Shown in pieces: positions 5,790 through 13,896 of a stretch of DNA of 64,000 bases. Below the pieces are notes generated by a model. That model saw only the letters and a program-made list of their open reading frames with translations. It was not told where the DNA came from and did no database searches. Each line of letters begins with the position of its first letter. Within the stretch, counting starts at the first letter, position 1. The stretch covers positions 102,881-166,880 of the forward strand of contig JAGVPB010000094.1 of assembly GCA_020052415.1 (NCBI GenBank), given 5' to 3'. The DNA comes from Bacteroidales bacterium. GTDB taxonomy: Bacteria; Bacteroidota; Bacteroidia; Bacteroidales; JAADJA01. The translations under genes were made by a program, and so were the position numbers.

Positions 5790-6956
5790 ATGGCTCAAAA
5801 ATTAATTAATAAAAGACGGTTTTTAAAAGAAGGCATCCTGGGAGCAGGGGCGTTAAGTTGCGGAATATTCAATATAAACCCGCTTAATGTGAAAGCCGGT
5901 GAATTATTAGGTTTGCAGGACAAGGAATCTGAAGGATTCAAAGAAAGCTGGAAAATAGAATCCAAATTTTATATCAACACTCCTAAGGGATTAAAATGTC
6001 AGCTTTGCCCGAATGAATGTAAAATGCTGCTTAATGAAACCGGCGATTGTAGAACCAAAGTAAATATTGAAAACAGGCTTATTTGCATTGCTTACGGTAA
6101 TCCATGCGCAATTCATATTGATCCAATAGAAAAAAAACCACTTTATCACTTTTATCCAGGATCCAGTGCCTTTTCGATTGCTACTGCAGGATGTAATCTG
6201 GCATGTCTGAATTGTCAAAACTGGGAGATTTCCCAATCCAGTCCTTACTCAACAAGAAATTATGATTTATCACCTGAAAAAGTCGTGGATGAGTGTGCAA
6301 AGAACAATTGTAAATCCATTGCCTATACATATTCTGATCCGGTGGCATTTTATGAATATACACTTGACACTGCAATCATTGCCCGTGAAAAAAATATTAA
6401 AAATGTAATTGTCAGCGCTGGCTATATTAATGAAAAGCCATTAAGAGAATGGTGCAAATATATTGATGGTGCACATATTGATTTGAAATCCTTTTCAAAT
6501 GAAATATATGAAATGCTGAATGCCGGGAAGCTAGAACCCGTTCTGAATACATTAAAAATAATGAAAGAAGAGGGTGTATGGCTCGAAATTATCAATCTGA
6601 TAATTCCCACTTGGACGGATGATCTGGATATGATTAAAAAAATGTGTGATTGGCTCGCTGAAAATGGTTTTGAATCAACACCCCTGCATTTTAGCAGATT
6701 TCAACCTCTTTATAAATTGACCAACTTACCTGCAACCCCGGTTTCTGTTTTAGACAAAGCAAGGGAAATTGCACTTTCCCGGGGAGTAAACTTTGTTTAT
6801 ATTGGTAATGTGCCTGGTACCTTGGCAGAAAATACTTTTTGTCCTGATTGTAAAAAAGTCGTCATTTCAAGGAAAGGCTTCAGAATACTTGAAAACAATT
6901 TAGATGCAGGGAAATGCAAATTCTGCAAAGCCGCAATACAAGGCATTTGGGATTGA
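5790..6956 (+). CDS. AmmeMemoRadiSam system radical SAM enzyme with twin-arginine (Tat)-like leader
   Basis: The CxxxCxxC motif is CNLACLNC. Extra Cys clusters are CQLCPNEC near the N-terminus and CPDC...CKFC near the C-terminus. The N-terminus is MAQKLINKRRFLKEGILGAGALSCGIF. The track begins at the alternative TTG at 5778, but the ATG at 5790 is preferred. Confidence 0.85.
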   Translation: MAQKLINKRRFLKEGILGAGALSCGIFNINPLNVKAGELLGLQDKESEGFKESWKIESKFYINTPKGLKCQLCPNECKMLLNETGDCRTKVNIENRLICIAYGNPCAIHIDPIEKKPLYHFYPGSSAFSIATAGCNLACLNCQNWEISQSSPYSTRNYDLSPEKVVDECAKNNCKSIAYTYSDPVAFYEYTLDTAIIAREKNIKNVIVSAGYINEKPLREWCKYIDGAHIDLKSFSNEIYEMLNAGKLEPVLNTLKIMKEEGVWLEIINLIIPTWTDDLDMIKKMCDWLAENGFESTPLHFSRFQPLYKLTNLPATPVSVLDKAREIALSRGVNFVYIGNVPGTLAENTFCPDCKKVVISRKGFRILENNLDAGKCKFCKAAIQGIWD

Positions 6957-7439
6957 TATAACTTCACCAGAATCGATCCTTTTTTTATTAAATAAACACA
7001 TCAAATAAATTAATGCTTATAGAGTTTAAATTTCCGTTAGAAGTAGTTTTTTAATTCAGATAAATATAACAATTTCACAGGATTTACGTAATAATGCTAT
7101 TAAATTGAGTTAAAAAATCAATAATTTAAGTTTAATAACTTTGATATTCATGTAATTGCTCAGACAGAATAAGAATTAATGTTCACTCCATACCATTTCT
7201 TTTCAGAATTTTCTATTCAGCGAGCAGGAATAGGAACAGAGTTATTGTAACAAGAATGCATTAATCATTTTGATTTTTTTTGAAATTTATAATTTTAGTT
7301 TTGTTGGAAAAAATTAAGTTTGTACACTCGCTTTTATTGTTTCTTATAACATTGATCAAATTATGGAATCTTAAATTGGAATTGCAACAAACTAAATTTC
7401 ATACTGTTATGAAATTTTATAAAAAATTTTTACAGAACA

Positions 7440-7470
7440 GGGTTACCTTTTATTGATTTACAGAATTAAC
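7440..7470 (+). promoter_or_regulatory. conserved motif GGGTTACC-N-CAGAATTAAC upstream of the sigma factor gene (candidate ECF-type promoter)
   Basis: GGGTTACCTTTTATTGATTTACAGAATTAAC ends 9 nt before the GTG start at 7480. It is 25/31 identical (ungapped, hand count) to 12864-12894. Confidence 0.5.
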
Positions 7471-7479
7471 TATTGAAAA

Positions 7480-8052
7480 GTGCAGGAATTTAAGGCAGAA
7501 GAAATATTAGAAGGCCTTCAGAATAGAGACACTGACGTTCTGGATTATATCTACAGAAACTTTTTCAATCAGATAAAAGTTTTTATTGTCCAAAATGATG
7601 GTACTGATGAAGATGCAAAGGATATATACCAGGATGCGATTTTAGTGATTTATCAAAAGACCCGAAAGGAAAACCTGATACTTAGTTGTTCTTTTAATAC
7701 TTATTTATATTCAGTTTGCAGATTACTGTGGCTAAAACAACTCGAATACAGGAAATTAAATAAAACTATAATTGAAGAATCTGCAAAGTTTATTGAATTG
7801 GATGACGATGTAGCTAACGTTTACAGGACAAATGAGCGATATATGTTATATCAGGATCATTTTAAAAGGCTTAGTTATAGTTGTCAGAAAATTTTAGAAC
7901 TTTTTCTTGCAAGAATTCAATTAAAAGAAATTGCAAGGATTCTAAGACTTAAAAGTGATGATTACGTGAAAAAGAGAAAACATCAATGCAAAGAAAAATT
8001 AATTGCAAGCATTAAAAATGACCCAAGGTTTAAAGAAATAATGAAACAATAA
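7480..8052 (+). CDS. RNA polymerase sigma factor, sigma-70 family, ECF-like (regions 2 and 4)
   Basis: The region-2-like segment is DAKDIYQDAILVIYQK...FNTYLYSVCRLLWLKQ. The region-4 HTH-like segment is LKEIARILRLKSDDYVKKRKHQCKEKL. The start is GTG, with an in-frame TGA two codons upstream. Confidence 0.75.
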   Translation: MQEFKAEEILEGLQNRDTDVLDYIYRNFFNQIKVFIVQNDGTDEDAKDIYQDAILVIYQKTRKENLILSCSFNTYLYSVCRLLWLKQLEYRKLNKTIIEESAKFIELDDDVANVYRTNERYMLYQDHFKRLSYSCQKILELFLARIQLKEIARILRLKSDDYVKKRKHQCKEKLIASIKNDPRFKEIMKQ

Positions 8053-8072
8053 AATTCTAAATTATCTTAAAA

Positions 8073-8813
8073 ATGAATAAATCCTATAATCAAATCGAAG
8101 ATTTTCTTGATGGCAATTTAATTGGAAAGGAATTAAGTATATTTATCAGCCAGAAAGAATTGGATAAGGAACTTGCAAAGGAAATTGAGCTTAGGTTCGA
8201 AGTAAATGAATTAATAAAGGATAATGGATTTTTCGAATTGAGAGAAAAACTCGAACTTCAGAGAAATGAATCCTATGTAAATAGTTCAATTATTAAGTTC
8301 AGAAAAGATTTATTTAAAACGTGGCATTTTGCCGCTGCTTCTTTTGCTCTTATCCTTGTTGTAGGCGGATTATGGTATATTTTATCGAACAAGCCCTATT
8401 CCACTGAAAAATTAGTTAGTAAATATTATAAACCTGCTCACCCTTTATTACAGGTTAGGTCAGCTGAAATTAAAAGTGATGATGCCCTTGCCACGGCATT
8501 CAAATATTATAAGGACAATGATTTCAACAGCGCTCTTAAATATTTTAATTCATTAGAAAATCAAATGACTGCAAAGTTTTATTCAGGAGTATGTTTTATT
8601 GAATTAGAACAATATGATGATGCTATTGAATCGTTCACAGCAGTAATTAATGACAATGACAATTTATTTGTAGAACAGGCAAACTGGTATTTAGGACTTA
8701 TCTATTTAATGGACAATCAAAAAAATAAGGCCATTGAACAGTTTGAAAAGATTTCTAAGGACGAAAATTACTATACTTCCCAGGCAAAAGAAATATTAAA
8801 ATATCTCAACTAA
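8073..8813 (+). CDS. anti-sigma-like single-pass membrane protein with extracytoplasmic TPR domain
   Basis: It lies 20 nt downstream of the sigma gene. The N-terminus IEDFLDGNL resembles anti-sigma N-termini. There is one TM segment (WHFAAASFALILVVGGLWYIL) and C-terminal TPR-like repeats (AFKYYKDNDFNSALKYF, AKFYSGVCFIELEQYDDAIESF, ANWYLGLIYLMDNQKNKAIEQF). Confidence 0.6.
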   Translation: MNKSYNQIEDFLDGNLIGKELSIFISQKELDKELAKEIELRFEVNELIKDNGFFELREKLELQRNESYVNSSIIKFRKDLFKTWHFAAASFALILVVGGLWYILSNKPYSTEKLVSKYYKPAHPLLQVRSAEIKSDDALATAFKYYKDNDFNSALKYFNSLENQMTAKFYSGVCFIELEQYDDAIESFTAVINDNDNLFVEQANWYLGLIYLMDNQKNKAIEQFEKISKDENYYTSQAKEILKYLN

Positions 8814-11800
8814 TATTTTTTCTTTTCCTGTATATTCTAAAGCCGATATAAACGGTTACTAAAATTAGAAGAAAAGCTACAGGATAAATTAAATACCTCC
8901 TGTATGAATAGGTGATAATGGTTGAATTATCACCTATTTGTACATAAGCAGCCCAAAAATATGGATGAGAATGTATTTGATCAGATTCAGTTATATAGGT
9001 CAGCTTTGAATTTCTAAGTGCATCATCAATATTCAATCCTTTATTCAGATTATGATAAAACTTTTCCATTATATTAGCACTGGAAATATCTTCTATTTCC
9101 CATAATGTCATGACAATAGAAGGAACACCTGCATACATAAATCCCCTGGCAAGACTCATGATTCCTTCTCCCTTACTGAACTTACCTATGCCTGTTTTAC
9201 ATGCACTTAAAACCACCAATTGGGCATTTAGGTTGAGATTGTAAATTTCATAATTATTCAGAAATCCATCCTCCGCCGAATCATTATTTAAAGTAAAAAC
9301 TAATTTTGATTTAAGTGGATCTTCATCATTTATTAAGGTATGCATTGCAAAATGAAGTATTTTAAACTTATTGGCATCGGATTTAACAAATTTCTCGGTA
9401 GCCTCCTCACCAGTCACAACTTTGCCATATACTTCTGAACTAATATTATTTACTTCATCAATTGAATAATCCAAAGGTGTAAGCATTGAGAATTTATCCC
9501 ATGAGACCTTATGTTCAGAGTTCAAATCTGCTAAGTTCAAATAGGTTGGGGCCATAGCCAACAACTTACCATTGTTTTTCTTCTTAACATTATGTTTAAA
9601 CATTATGGTCGCTGAATAAATGTAAGATACAGAATATTGATTAATTACATAGTTTAAATTTCTGAAATCCAATTTATCCGGGACATAATCATCCATTAAT
9701 AAGGCTTCGAAAGTTAAGTAACCCAATATACCATCCGGAACGATCAGCAAACTTTTATGATCCTTGGTAACTCCAATATTTTCCAATAATATTTTATAAA
9801 AATAATAACTGCTTTGAATAAAATCTTTATAAGTCTCCTTCGTAAAATCATGACCCGGAAAGACATTTATCAAAGACATAAGCCCGATAACTTTTTCAGA
9901 GATATTACCTTCAATTATTTGCTTTTTATAAATCACTGTGTCATGCGAAATTAAAAATGTTAACAAGGCTGAATCAACAATTTTATACTCTATAAATATT
10001 TCGTCCTTCTCAAGTCTTTGCTGAATATCCTTAACTTCGATAACATCCACACTATATTTAAGCTGGAAATAGTCGGGATAATTATTTTCAATATGATCAA
10101 TCAGGCTGTCGTATTTTAATGATTCTTCAAAGATTATTTTTTTTAATGAAAAAATTTTATTGCTGTCAGGCATGCTTTTTTGACTTTCGTCATATAGGTT
10201 GATTTTATATAATGAAATTTCTTTATTAAGGTTTTGTTCCTTTGCTTTTATATTTTCAGGAATTTTACCAATTTCGATAGCCTCAGATTGCCTTAACGAA
10301 GATAAAAGAATTGCAGCTTTACCTTTTTCCGAAAACTCAAAAGCTTTATATAAATAATCAATGTCGTTGGTCTTCTCATAAAGATCTGTTGCTACAAGTA
10401 CAATTGAATTATAAATATCATATACATAATCATTTATTAATAGCTTAGTATTTTCGTCCTTATATGAGGATAAAATTTTCTCAAACAAGATTATTGTTAA
10501 TTTATTTACCTCGAAGCTTGCTTGTAGATCTGCAATCTTATGACTGTATTTTCTATAGTAAAGATAAAGTGCATCAGATTTTTTATACAAGGCAATAAAA
10601 TTGTTAAACTCTAAGTCAATGTCATCAATTGATGGATTCGAATATAAATTGTAATCATTGAATTTTTTTATTGTAGAAACAATAGCTTTTTGATAAACTT
10701 CCAACGCCTGTTCAATTTTATCCATATCGTAATACAAATCGGCAAGGTTAATTAAAACCAAAGAAACTTCAGTATTTTTAAAACCAAAAATCTCCTTATA
10801 AATTCTTAATGCATCATTAAATAAATTAACAGCTTCATTATACTTCTTCTGATTTGTACAAAATTGTCCATAAGCACTATAACTTCCTGCTGTATGGTAA
10901 CTATCTTTACCGTATAATTTTTCTGAAATTGAAATGGCCTTTTTATAATTCTCTTCAGCCTTAGAAAAGTCATTCAAACTAAAATAACACCTTGCTGAAT
11001 TTCTTAAGGCTTTAATGCTATTTTCCGGACTAAAGTTGTCAATTAGACAATCATTATAAAATTCAATCGCTTTTTGCAGGTTACCCAGTTTTTCATAAAT
11101 AACCCCAAAATTGAGGTATAATTCATTTATAACTGAATTTGTTGTAATAGAATTCTTTCGATACAATTCCAAAGCCTGTTCCTGGTAAGTAAGAGCTTTA
11201 TTATAATCACCTAACAAAATAAATATCGAACCTATATTAAAATATATCGGGGCAAGGCCAAAGTATTCCAAACCGAAATTTGAAATATAAATTTCTTCTG
11301 CTTTACTCAGATAATTCAAAGATTCGTTTGACTCTCCCATTATATACAAAAACCTGCCATAATTAAGGTATCCGGAAGCGAGCTGCGGATCGTTCTTATT
11401 AAGAAACTTTTCTTTCAATAATACTGATTGATTGAAATATAATTTCGCACTGTCATACAATCCCATATTTGAATTAGCAATGCCTATGTTTAAATACAAT
11501 GAAGCAATTGTAATATCAGATGGATAAACTCTTGACCTCTCAATCGAAAGTGCTTTATTATAAAAACCAAGTGCAGCTTTATTATCCTTTAAGCTAATTT
11601 CAAGGTTTCCAAGTGATTTATAAACCAACGGTGTTAGGCTGTCATATTTTTCATTTTCACAATAATCACGAGCAAGTTTAAGGCATTTTAGTGAACTATC
11701 AATTTCGCCATATTTAAATAATAAATTCCCTTTAATAAAGAAAAACTCTGCATGTACTTTTTTTGAATCTATCCCTTTAGAATTTAGAAAAATTTCGGAA

Positions 11801-12132
11801 GACTTTAAATAATGGAATGCTGAATCAAAAATTCCTTTTGTTTGAAATGATTGTGAAATAAGGATTTGACATTTTAAATATTTCTCCCTTTGATCAATTT
11901 GTAAATATAACAGCGAAGCTTTTTTGTAAAAAAACAATGCCGAATCGAACTGTGCCTGCAAATATAGAGAATCAGCTTTATAAAAGTTTTGAAATGCTTT
12001 CGAGGTCAATTCGGAAGTATCAATTGATTGGCTGTTTGAATTGACAGATGATAAACCAGACACTTTATTATTGCAACAAAATACCGTTAATAAAGCTATT
12101 AATACAAATCCGTTTAAAAAAAATTTGTTCAT
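8806..12132 (-). CDS. exported TPR-repeat / CHAT-domain (caspase-fold protease) protein with C-terminal membrane anchor
   Basis: The N-terminal signal is MNKFFLNGFVLIALLTVFCCNN. About 600 aa of TPR-like repeats follow. The CHAT region contains ILHFAMHTLINDEDPLKSKLVF and LVVLSACKTGIG (His and Cys dyad context). The C-terminal TM is YPVAFLLILVTVYIGF, followed by RIYRKRKNIS. Confidence 0.8.
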   Translation of the reverse strand: MNKFFLNGFVLIALLTVFCCNNKVSGLSSVNSNSQSIDTSELTSKAFQNFYKADSLYLQAQFDSALFFYKKASLLYLQIDQREKYLKCQILISQSFQTKGIFDSAFHYLKSSEIFLNSKGIDSKKVHAEFFFIKGNLLFKYGEIDSSLKCLKLARDYCENEKYDSLTPLVYKSLGNLEISLKDNKAALGFYNKALSIERSRVYPSDITIASLYLNIGIANSNMGLYDSAKLYFNQSVLLKEKFLNKNDPQLASGYLNYGRFLYIMGESNESLNYLSKAEEIYISNFGLEYFGLAPIYFNIGSIFILLGDYNKALTYQEQALELYRKNSITTNSVINELYLNFGVIYEKLGNLQKAIEFYNDCLIDNFSPENSIKALRNSARCYFSLNDFSKAEENYKKAISISEKLYGKDSYHTAGSYSAYGQFCTNQKKYNEAVNLFNDALRIYKEIFGFKNTEVSLVLINLADLYYDMDKIEQALEVYQKAIVSTIKKFNDYNLYSNPSIDDIDLEFNNFIALYKKSDALYLYYRKYSHKIADLQASFEVNKLTIILFEKILSSYKDENTKLLINDYVYDIYNSIVLVATDLYEKTNDIDYLYKAFEFSEKGKAAILLSSLRQSEAIEIGKIPENIKAKEQNLNKEISLYKINLYDESQKSMPDSNKIFSLKKIIFEESLKYDSLIDHIENNYPDYFQLKYSVDVIEVKDIQQRLEKDEIFIEYKIVDSALLTFLISHDTVIYKKQIIEGNISEKVIGLMSLINVFPGHDFTKETYKDFIQSSYYFYKILLENIGVTKDHKSLLIVPDGILGYLTFEALLMDDYVPDKLDFRNLNYVINQYSVSYIYSATIMFKHNVKKKNNGKLLAMAPTYLNLADLNSEHKVSWDKFSMLTPLDYSIDEVNNISSEVYGKVVTGEEATEKFVKSDANKFKILHFAMHTLINDEDPLKSKLVFTLNNDSAEDGFLNNYEIYNLNLNAQLVVLSACKTGIGKFSKGEGIMSLARGFMYAGVPSIVMTLWEIEDISSANIMEKFYHNLNKGLNIDDALRNSKLTYITESDQIHSHPYFWAAYVQIGDNSTIITYSYRRYLIYPVAFLLILVTVYIGFRIYRKRKNIS

Positions 12133-12290
12133 GGAAGGAAATAACTCCTTAAATTAATAGAACGTTGCACCGATAAAGAATAAATCATTATTCCTGCATA
12201 TTTTAATTCAATATTCCATCGAACACAATCAAAACAATCTTACTTAATCGAAAAACTTCTCTGTCGGGTCAATATTAGCAAGCGAAATAA

Positions 12291-12325
12291 AAAAGGGAAA
12301 TAATCTGAGCGAAAATTTCCCTTTT
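12291..12325 (-). terminator. rho-independent terminator downstream of the small secreted-peptide gene
   Basis: A perfect 11-bp stem pairs AAAAGGGAAAT (12291-12301) with ATTTCCCTTTT (12315-12325). On the minus strand it is followed by a T-rich run. Confidence 0.6.
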
Positions 12326-12498
12326 AATAAATCAAATCTCTTCAAGTACCAGAAAATTTTACCCTTATCCCTATATAAAACAAGAGACAATAATTCAACC
12401 ATTAGCAAATCTATTTATAATTTGCAACGTACGAAACTTATCTCTACAAATTGAAATAAGCTGTAAAATCTTTACAAAATCTCTCTGATAATAAAACT

Positions 12499-12681
12499 TT
12501 ATTCCGGAACGTAAACTCCATTAACATCCGCAGCACTATTTCCCTGAATATCATTACCTGGAGAAGTAGATGTACCTGAATTACCGTTGGCATCAGTACC
12601 AGTTTCATCAGAGAATACATTTAAAGTAAAAAAAACAAAGAACATAGCCATAATAATGGCAACAAAACCTCTCTTTTTCAT
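12499..12681 (-). CDS. small secreted protein (60 aa), Gly/Asn/Ser/Thr-rich mature part
   Basis: MKKRGFVAIIMAMFFVFFTLNVFS is a signal-like segment followed by a low-complexity DETGTDANGNSGTSTSPGNDIQGNSAADVNG tail. The gene has its own TAnnTTTG element (12725-12732, minus) and terminator (12291-12325). Confidence 0.5.
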   Translation of the reverse strand: MKKRGFVAIIMAMFFVFFTLNVFSDETGTDANGNSGTSTSPGNDIQGNSAADVNGVYVPE

Positions 12682-12724
12682 AAACCCTCAATTTTAAAAT
12701 TAATACAATTTTCGAATGACGATT

Positions 12725-12732
12725 CAAAAATA
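12725..12732 (-). promoter_or_regulatory. Bacteroidota -7 promoter element (TATTTTTG) for the small secreted-peptide gene
   Basis: The minus strand reads TATTTTTG 44 nt upstream of the ATG at 12681. Confidence 0.3.
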
Positions 12733-12863
12733 GTACTATTTTTCAATTTGGGACTTTTTTTTTCAATTTTTCACATATTTTATTAAATACATTATATTAA
12801 ATGCTGGTTATCAGTAAATTAATAATATTTTTTATTTTTTTAGTAAAAATAATTACAAAACCA

Positions 12864-12894
12864 GGGTAACCTTTTTTTCGATTTCAGAATTAAC
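12864..12894 (+). promoter_or_regulatory. second copy of the conserved GGGTWACC-N-CAGAATTAAC motif, upstream of the histidine kinase-like gene
   Basis: GGGTAACCTTTTTTTCGATTTCAGAATTAAC lies 44 nt upstream of the ATG at 12938. The upstream flank TACAAAACCA also resembles TACAGAACA at the first site. Confidence 0.5.
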
Positions 12895-12937
12895 AAATGG
12901 AGTGTAGTGCGTATTTCTTGACCTTTAATTTGCAGAA

Positions 12938-13729
12938 ATGAATAGAAAGTTGACTTATAAAGAGTTAGAGGAAAAGGTATCCGAAATGGAAAGTAAACTT
13001 ACCTTGAAGGATAAAGAAGTACATAAGTTAAAGTCATCCTTTCTATCGAATATTTCACACGAAATTCGAACCCCGATGAATGTGATAGTTGGATTCTCCT
13101 ATCTGCTAAATGATCCACATTATGACCAAAATCAAAAGGAATTCTTTGTTGGAGAGATAAATAAAAACAGTAAAGAATTACTCAGGTTAATTGATAACAT
13201 TATTTTAACTGCCAAGATTGAGACGGATGATATTAAGCTCGAAATGAATATTTGTGATATTCAAACCTTGATGGAGGAACTTTATACTCAAATTCGAAAA
13301 TTTGTTAATTCTAATTTAAACAATAAAGTTGAATTAAAATTCATTCAAAATACTTTAAAATCGAATTATCAGATTTTCACAGACAGGGAGAAGTTTATGC
13401 GCGCGATGTTTAATATGATAGAAAACGCAATTAAATTTTCAAAAAATAATTCTGTCGAATTTGGTTACAATATAATTAATGACAAATTTGTTGATTTCTT
13501 CATTAAAGATAATGGAATTGGTACCAATGGTGAAATCAATTTCTCCGGCCGGAAATTAAGTCTTATTGAACCGGATGATAATTCAGATTTTTATGAAACC
13601 AGGATTGGACTTACTATATCTGATAAATTGATCAGGTTGCTTGGCGGAAAGTTAAAAATAAAATCCTCAATTGGAAAAGGATCCTCTTTTAATTTTACAA
13701 TACCTCTGTTAGTAGAAAAGCCTGTATAA
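12938..13729 (+). CDS. soluble histidine kinase-like protein (coiled coil + HisKA + HATPase_c), no sensor or TM domain
   Basis: The H-box is SFLSNISHEIRTPMN, the N-box-like segment is MIENAIKFS, the G1-like segment is IKDNGIG and the G2-like segment is GLTISDKLIRLLGG. No hydrophobic segment is present and no response regulator gene lies nearby. Confidence 0.7.
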   Translation: MNRKLTYKELEEKVSEMESKLTLKDKEVHKLKSSFLSNISHEIRTPMNVIVGFSYLLNDPHYDQNQKEFFVGEINKNSKELLRLIDNIILTAKIETDDIKLEMNICDIQTLMEELYTQIRKFVNSNLNNKVELKFIQNTLKSNYQIFTDREKFMRAMFNMIENAIKFSKNNSVEFGYNIINDKFVDFFIKDNGIGTNGEINFSGRKLSLIEPDDNSDFYETRIGLTISDKLIRLLGGKLKIKSSIGKGSSFNFTIPLLVEKPV

Positions 13730-13750
13730 ACGATACAGGCTAAGAATTAA

Positions 13751-13778
13751 GCCATCCAATATTGGGTGGCTTTTTTTT
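13751..13778 (+). terminator. rho-independent terminator after the histidine kinase-like gene
   Basis: The hairpin GCCATCCAAT/ATTGGGTGGC is followed directly by T8. Confidence 0.7.
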
Positions 13779-13896
13779 ATTTACCGTTAATCTATTACAA
13801 TTCGAATGGTTGAAAGAAATAATTTCAGGCTATAACAATCTAAAATTCCTGTAAATTTTAATTTGCTTTGCAATAAAAATAAATTAAATATTGCTT

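Follow-up and report, generated by a model that had tools for sequence, protein, structure and literature searches.

A rare, conserved two-block motif upstream of a divergent sigma factor gene and a sensor-less histidine kinase gene in Bacteroidales is very probably an autoregulated ECF-type promoter and its regulon counterpart

Autoregulation of an ECF sigma factor from a private -35/-10 promoter is a textbook design; here it is met in a Bacteroidales sigma family that appears to be uncharacterised. Typical ECF (group 4) promoters carry an AAC signature in the -35 element (GGAAC or GTAAC) and CGT in the -10 element, and transcription usually starts 5-9 nt after the -10 element. Bacillus subtilis SigW is autoregulated from a TGAAAC-N16-CGTA promoter. 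To our knowledge, DdvS/DdvA of Myxococcus xanthus is the only CHAT-linked ECF system that has been studied. The DdvS promoters, including the autoregulated PddvSA, were mapped by 5'-RACE and follow the pattern GTAA-N16-CGT (PMC6061681), and fused proteins of the DdvA type were found by their authors only among Myxococcota and in a single species of Comamonas (PMC11506125). The mapped promoter of Caulobacter crescentus sigma-F reads GTAACC-N16-CGAA (PMC3511200), and the Brucella melitensis BcrS gene has its own promoter of the form TGTAACCTTTTT...GCGAATAA, with GCGAAT in the -10 element (PMC8315932).

In the window, i.e. the whole stretch of 64,000 nt of Bacteroidales DNA that we analysed, two copies of a motif lie on the plus strand at 7440-7470 and 12864-12894, upstream of a sigma factor gene and a histidine kinase gene, exactly where a sequence-only reading of this DNA had placed them. 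Column by column the ungapped copies are identical at 25/31 positions, the mismatches being at motif positions 5, 13, 16, 17, 18 and 21; the blocks GGGTWACCTTTT and CAGAATTAAC are invariant in both copies and the upstream flanks (TACAGAACA at 7431-7439 and TACAAAACCA at 12854-12863) are alike, all in agreement with that reading. From the end of the first copy to the sigma GTG (7480) there are 9 nt, as had been stated, and from the end of the second to the kinase ATG (12938) there are 43, which corrects the 44 nt given there. We propose that the copies are very probably an autoregulated ECF-type promoter and one regulon promoter, both read by the sigma factor encoded at 7480-8052. The sigma-specific promoter suggested in the sequence-only reading finds support in what we observe, since the motif is conserved at the sigma and kinase loci, is built of two blocks, is rare, is oriented toward its genes and tracks the sigma gene across genomes.

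The rarity is easily seen from pattern counts. The pattern GGGTWACCTTTT-N8-14-CAGAATTAAC matches twice in the window versus 0 times in 100 shuffles, and the same two sites are its sole matches in the whole 4.67-Mb host genome (39.4% G+C). A PWM of 32 nt, built from 26 distinct orthologous sites, gives the two copies 41.9 and 41.1 bits and no other site in the genome more than 13.8. Further regulon members in this genome were sought with relaxed and variable-spacing patterns, which returned background matches only: over the whole genome the relaxed variable-spacing patterns gave 15 matches versus 18 for the reversed control, and the extra relaxed-pattern matches that we inspected lie inside long reading frames. 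The genome-wide search that had been proposed for defining a regulon, now carried out, leaves the two copies as the regulon sites, and with 2 sites in 4.67 Mb and no dispersed repeat the worry that the motif might be a common repeat falls away.

Alignment of orthologous sigma loci resolved the motif into its parts. In the promoter of the sigma operon the -35 element (A-GGGTTACC-TTTT) spans 7439-7451 of the plus strand, followed by a spacer of 11 nt at 7452-7462 and the -10 element GAATTAA at 7463-7469; in the kinase promoter, on the same strand, the -35 element (A-GGGTAACC-TTTT) spans 12863-12875 and the -10 element GAATTAA 12887-12893. Among 24 distinct orthologs from the genus the -35 block has a mean pairwise identity of 93% versus 52% in the 20-nt upstream flank (flank identity is 52-54% overall), with an information content of 1.5-2.3 bits per position. 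The -10 block GAATWAA is 94% identical among genus orthologs, and the spacer is conserved in length, without gaps in any genus ortholog, and unconstrained in sequence (41% identity). The genus consensus can be written as AGGGTWACCTTT(T), 11 variable bases, GAATWAA, 8-11 bases and the start codon. Because two conserved blocks are held apart by a spacer of fixed length and free sequence, the arrangement has the look of a -35/-10 promoter, unlike that of a single protein-binding site or an RNA element.

How does this arrangement compare with described ECF promoters? Counted from the hexamer, the layout is GGTAAC-N16-GAAT, with the N16 spacing of SigW. The centre of the -35 element is W, as the kinase copy and most orthologs read GTAAC and the sigma copy of this genome and many relatives read GTTAC; the AAC signature of ECF -35 elements is only half kept in the aligned sites. 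CGT is never found in the -10 element, which reads GAATWAA in the genus and GGAT or GTAT in other lineages, and its absence counts against an ECF promoter. Sigma-F and BcrS also deviate from CGT, with CGAA, and they share with this locus a -35 core GTAACC followed by a T-run, GAA(T) within the -10 element, a promoter directly upstream of the sigma gene (autoregulation) and a very small regulon. They differ in that GAA is preceded by C there and by A or G here; in that GAA lies 2 nt closer to the -35 element here when the GAA triplets are aligned, which counts against our reading; in that the centre of the -35 element can be T here (GTTACC); and in that the -10 element extends here into a conserved TWAA. 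The genetic setting also differs, as here it comprises a Bacteroidota-specific sigma lineage, a putative TPR anti-sigma and a separate CHAT protein. With DdvS the locus has in common a few private promoters clustered near the sigma gene; unlike here, where the -10 element is GAAT and the regulon includes a histidine kinase, and T9SS cargo in relatives, the DdvS promoters have CGT and the regulon is a CBASS/CRISPR defence island.

The copies had been described as unlike the housekeeping TTTG/TAnnTTTG promoter, and a regex scan bears this out, with no TAnnTTTG found within or downstream of either copy. The scan also found none in the whole 256 nt upstream of the kinase, and the kinase would for this reason depend entirely on the motif promoter. 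Upstream of the sigma motif there are three housekeeping-type -7 elements TAnnTTTG on the plus strand (7136, 7296 and 7315, together covering 7136-7322), 125-330 nt away from it; three such elements in the 523-nt gap (6957-7479) versus 0.47 per kb window-wide amount to a ~12x higher density. By the published Bacteroidetes consensus these could be candidate basal sigma-A promoters of the sigma operon. A scan with the sigma-70 consensus of the E. coli type gave 43 hits versus 41 expected. An AT-only inverted repeat at 7394-7417, also upstream of the sigma motif, has no conserved counterpart at orthologous loci.

Other kinds of element were considered and set aside. A known RNA element was rejected since an Rfam search of 6900-13100 returned no match at E <= 1, a sigma-54 promoter was rejected because inspection showed GC to be missing 10 nt past the GG, and a translation signal because motif-to-start-codon distances vary between ~3 and 400 nt among target genes.

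Because of an in-frame TGA at 7474-7476, the sigma gene can start no earlier than the GTG at 7480. With this limit on the sigma reading frame, and with no TAnnTTTG between motif and gene, no space is left there for another promoter, which speaks for the motif as the promoter itself. Judged by the usual distance from an ECF -10 element to +1, transcription would start within 7472-7479 (plus strand), leaving the sigma mRNA with a predicted 5' leader of 1-8 nt, i.e. nearly leaderless. A leader of 1-8 nt before a GTG would be unusual for efficient translation and counts against the promoter reading. Leaderless mRNAs make up ~5.5% of transcripts in one mapped flavobacterium (PMC9723704).

The gene at 7480-8052 (plus strand, GTG start) encodes a divergent ECF-type sigma factor of 190 aa. 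It scores 38.9 bits with TIGR02937 (cut-off 42.9) and 20.2 with Pfam Sigma70_r2 (cut-off 24), without a match to r4, and these sub-cut-off scores count against an ECF assignment. A profile of 19 sigma orthologs has a sole match in the PDB, B. subtilis SigW, which it aligns end to end (E 8.4e-6). The two proteins share the two-domain sigma-2/sigma-4 architecture over ~190 aa with a full-length profile alignment, and differ in anti-sigma type, -10 sequence and phylum, the sequence similarity being marginal (E 8.4e-6 with the 19-sequence profile). The stop codon of the sigma gene is followed after 20 nt by a gene on the same strand (8073-8813) for a single-pass, anti-sigma-like protein of 246 aa, in which a cytoplasmic N-terminus and one hydrophobic segment (WHFAAASFALILVVGGLWYIL, identified by eye from the translation) precede a C-terminal TPR domain (residues 135-226 match TPR families). 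No anti-sigma-domain model matched this protein; its organisation is the layout of a putative single-pass anti-sigma factor, presumably co-transcribed with the sigma gene. Convergent to it, on the minus strand at 8806-12132 and outside the promoter region, lies a gene for a TPR-CHAT protein of 1108 aa (Pfam CHAT 9.3e-56, TPR_12 4.5e-64). The locus resembles DdvS/DdvA in combining an ECF sigma and a transmembrane anti-sigma, putative here, with a link to TPR-CHAT, which in DdvA is periplasmic (PMC6061681, PMC11506125), with the difference that TPR-CHAT is fused to the anti-sigma there and is encoded by the separate convergent gene here.

Within the genus, 25 of the 28 other genomes have a sigma ortholog, 58-77% identical, and more distant orthologs are found in further families of the order; in species-representative genomes there are at least 502 relatives, the closest of them in uncultured Bacteroidales MAGs. 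Conservation of the motif upstream of orthologous sigma genes, which the first description had named as a check, is complete in the genus, where the motif is present in 26/26 genomes that have the sigma. Between the 32-nt motif and the start codon of the sigma gene there are 8-11 nt in the genus loci inspected and as few as 3-6 nt in one family. Beyond the genus the motif persists in further families of Bacteroidales and Marinilabiliales, among them those of Marinifilum, Ancylomarina and Labilibaculum (an example is GGGTTACCTTTTTGCCATAAAAGGAATAAAGGGATAGAAAATATG). Many sigma orthologs of Prolixibacteraceae and Sunxiuqinia lack it, which counts against our reading. These motif-less orthologs (L132, L140, L142-L149, L154 and L156) are 46-50% identical, and a different pattern recurs upstream of them, approximately TTTAAACG-N-TATAAC and situated ~9 nt ahead of the ATG; it may be a diverged promoter for sigmas of the F/Y type described below.

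The strict pattern is found 1-10 times per genome in 27 of the 29 genus genomes, versus 2 matches in total for the reversed control. Three genus genomes lack the sigma, and these absences are soft, all genus genomes being MAGs of 63-98% completeness; two of the three also lack the motif and the third, G018, a fragmented MAG of 240 contigs, has four motif sites, three of them at or near contig ends. Orthologous sigmas were sought in G018 and G040, where only distant ECFs were found. Across 32 genomes of other families the relaxed pattern matches only in G052, G046, G035, G039 and G040 (reversed control, 3), and the first four of these are 4/5 of the other-family genomes with a sigma ortholog at E < 1e-30. 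G031 has the sigma and only a degenerate motif, and this, like the motif sites of G018, counts against our reading. Over all 61 genomes the motif is present in 30/31 with the sigma versus 2/30 without it, for which Fisher p = 6e-14 is only indicative since the genomes are related.

The second copy stands before the gene of a sensor-less histidine kinase of 263 aa (12938-13729, plus strand), which consists of a coiled coil, HisKA (Pfam 7.5e-14) and HATPase_c (1.3e-12) and nothing more; no response regulator is adjacent. The one-gene unit is closed by a strong intrinsic terminator at 13749-13782 (plus strand), with a 10-bp stem containing 5 GC pairs, followed by TTTTTTATTT. Kinase orthologs in the genus are encoded by frames of 260-296 codons, 42-60% identical, 5.3-6.3 kb from the sigma promoter, and the motif lies ~38-47 nt before the kinase start in 12/12 loci with readable upstream sequence (8 with the strict pattern, 3, in G015, G017 and G026, with an altered -10 element, GTAT or GAATAT, the twelfth being this genome). 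The -10 element of orthologous kinase promoters is GAAT, or GTAT in two species. Since the motif is kept at orthologous kinases that are only 42-60% identical, there is good support for counting the kinase as a regulon member, and the wiring would be old within the genus. The kinase is the only predicted regulon member outside the sigma operon in this genome.

Two further features of the kinase loci may be mentioned. An upstream frame of 14 codons (12897-12941, plus strand; MECSAYFLTFNLQK) begins 2 nt past the motif and its stop overlaps the kinase start (ATGA); it is not conserved in orthologous kinase leaders and is probably fortuitous. In three species the kinase has been deleted except for a short 3' remnant (L077-L079: G009:C167, G016:C10 and G020:C312); the motif, the terminator and the neighbouring tRNA are still in place there, and the sigma motif is kept too.

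In relatives the motif also precedes other genes. Wherever a downstream gene could be recognised the site points toward it, at ~3-400 nt. Of the 62 distinct sites that were scanned, 3 lie inside an unexplained frame, all three from the relaxed order-level pattern, and two apparent exceptions are intergenic, upstream of thrS. Copies are most numerous in G006 (10) and G023 (6), where the genes downstream encode exported proteins: 5/10 downstream genes encode a T9SS C-terminal sorting domain, in one of these five together with cohesin/dockerin-like and in two with YadA-head-like domains, and two encode paralogous lipoproteins, judged from the N-terminal sequence read by eye. Genes following the motif in other families encode a C39-peptidase ABC exporter, a subtilase, TPR proteins and a DUF4493 lipoprotein. 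The exporter is that of G046 (L176, G046:C20:49736-...), where it (Pfam 7.7e-35), and not a kinase, follows a motif situated 4.9 kb downstream of the sigma, a hint that in that lineage the export of peptides or bacteriocins may be controlled. A different kind of downstream sequence was seen in two sister species, at loci outside the window (L058, G018:C68:1-2306; L076, G028:C534; L041, G028:C29), where a conserved multi-copy non-coding stretch of 220-280 nt directly follows the motif. Its copies are 86-99% identical, open with a GTCCGCC...GGCGGAC hairpin, sit mostly at contig ends and have different genes further on. The stretch is absent from this genome and is a candidate for a sigma-dependent small RNA or a shared long leader.

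The -10 variants follow lineages, with GAAT in the genus, GTAT in 4/4 pattern hits of G035 and GGAT in 7/7 of G046. We compared the second base of the -10 element at 84 sigma loci with residue X of the sigma helix YSVC(R/K)-X-LWLK, which lies in the region of sigma residues ~77-86 (~7708-7737 of the window). With X = L the upstream -10 element is GAAT in 40/44 cases, with X = I it is GGAT in 14/17 and with X = R it is GTAT in 2/2, and sigmas with F or Y at this position have no motif in 15/18. Residue X loosely tracks the -10 variant, which is suggestive only, as the tally is confounded by clade structure and has exceptions, such as kinase promoters with GTAT in genomes whose sigma has X = L. 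In G019 (G019:C4:145074-170154; L087 and L092) three paralogous sigma cassettes stand in tandem ~12 kb apart, one of which combines R as residue X with a shifted form of the motif (GGGTATCC...GGTATAAA); this looks like duplication followed by a change of specificity.

Could the motif be an operator or activator site and not a core promoter? GGTWACC is a 7-bp palindrome in which both central bases, A and T, occur, and a dimer bound to it, or the response-regulator partner of the kinase, for which an unlinked DNA-binding protein is conceivable as no response regulator is adjacent, might control both units, possibly from inside a longer transcript that starts at an upstream TAnnTTTG element. We consider this unlikely. 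Ancylomarina and several MAG lineages have retained the T-run and the second block and lost the palindrome, with GGTTACT replacing GGTWACC in at least six Ancylomarina-type loci, several MAGs and G035/G052; dyad symmetry is not conserved across orthologous sites, and the conserved flanks are asymmetric, with G upstream and the T-run downstream. The dimeric protein on palindromic GGTWACC, which the sequence-only reading had kept as its alternative, is disfavoured by the GGTTACT lineages and the asymmetric flanks. The two blocks are, moreover, unrelated in sequence, separated by a constant distance and in strict orientation relative to the genes, and in the three species that have deleted the kinase the motif stays both at the sigma gene and at the remnant. 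The 256-nt region upstream of the kinase is without a housekeeping -7 element for an activator to act on, and nothing resembling a separate core promoter was seen between the motif and either gene.

Promoter specificities are known to overlap among ECF sigmas, and the motif might also be a genuine alternative-sigma promoter read by a different sigma of the genome, in which case the circuit would be a cascade and not autoregulated. Bacteroidota genomes encode ~22 ECF sigmas on average (PMC7826278), and the G018 assembly contains motif sites and no orthologous sigma. We give this very little probability, as the motif tracks sigmas of the 7480-8052 type across 61 genomes, is found directly upstream of the orthologous sigma in those genus genomes that have the gene, and has a -10 variant that changes lineage-wide together with the sigma clade; G018 itself is a fragmented MAG with its motif sites at contig ends. 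That the copies are a non-functional leftover of local duplication, or due to chance, might be argued from there being only two of them in the genome, 5.4 kb apart in an AT-rich region. The probability of this is close to nil: shuffles gave 0 matches, synteny of the two sites is preserved throughout the genus, and the blocks are conserved where spacer and flanks diverge, across species with sigmas only 58-77% identical. The ortholog alignments effectively rule out chance and a duplication remnant alike.

How would the autoregulated sigma promoter and its kinase counterpart work then? We infer the dependence on the 7480-8052 sigma and, from general knowledge of ECF systems, the transcription start and the assignment of the sigma domains to the blocks: the -35 block GGGTWACCTTT would be the target of the sigma-4 domain, and the -10 block GAATWAA, 11 nt further on, that of the sigma-2 domain. 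The copy at 7439-7469 would drive the sigma/anti-sigma operon, resulting in positive autoregulation, with transcription starting a few nt before the sigma GTG and giving a nearly leaderless mRNA; at the sigma gene and at the other motif sites starts would be expected 5-9 nt after GGAATAAA. The copy at 12863-12893 would drive the sensor-less kinase as a monocistronic unit that has a leader of ~35-40 nt and ends at a terminator of its own. Release of the sigma by the membrane anti-sigma (8073-8813) would induce both units, which would make up the regulon in this genome, and in sister species the regulon would also include T9SS-sorted surface proteins and lipoproteins. As a tentative extension, it is possible that the locus forms a hybrid cascade, in which an envelope signal sets the amount of a constitutively active, input-less kinase that acts on an unlinked response regulator. 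The signal might be gated by a neighbouring exported CHAT protease acting on the TPR anti-sigma, signalling would proceed by kinase abundance and not by ligand sensing, and the sigma would be made from a nearly leaderless, GUG-initiated mRNA.

The sigma family appears to be uncharacterised and is widespread in Bacteroidales and Marinilabiliales, with the same motif present in cultured hosts, Marinifilum flexuosum DSM 21950 and Ancylomarina species. Its sigma/anti-sigma/CHAT module looks like a split version of M. xanthus DdvA. The analysis provides a usable promoter consensus, AGGGTWACCTTT-N12-GAATWAA, by which the predicted regulon of the sigma can now be read directly from genome sequence; in relatives this regulon would add T9SS cargo, lipoproteins, a subtilase and a C39-type ABC exporter.
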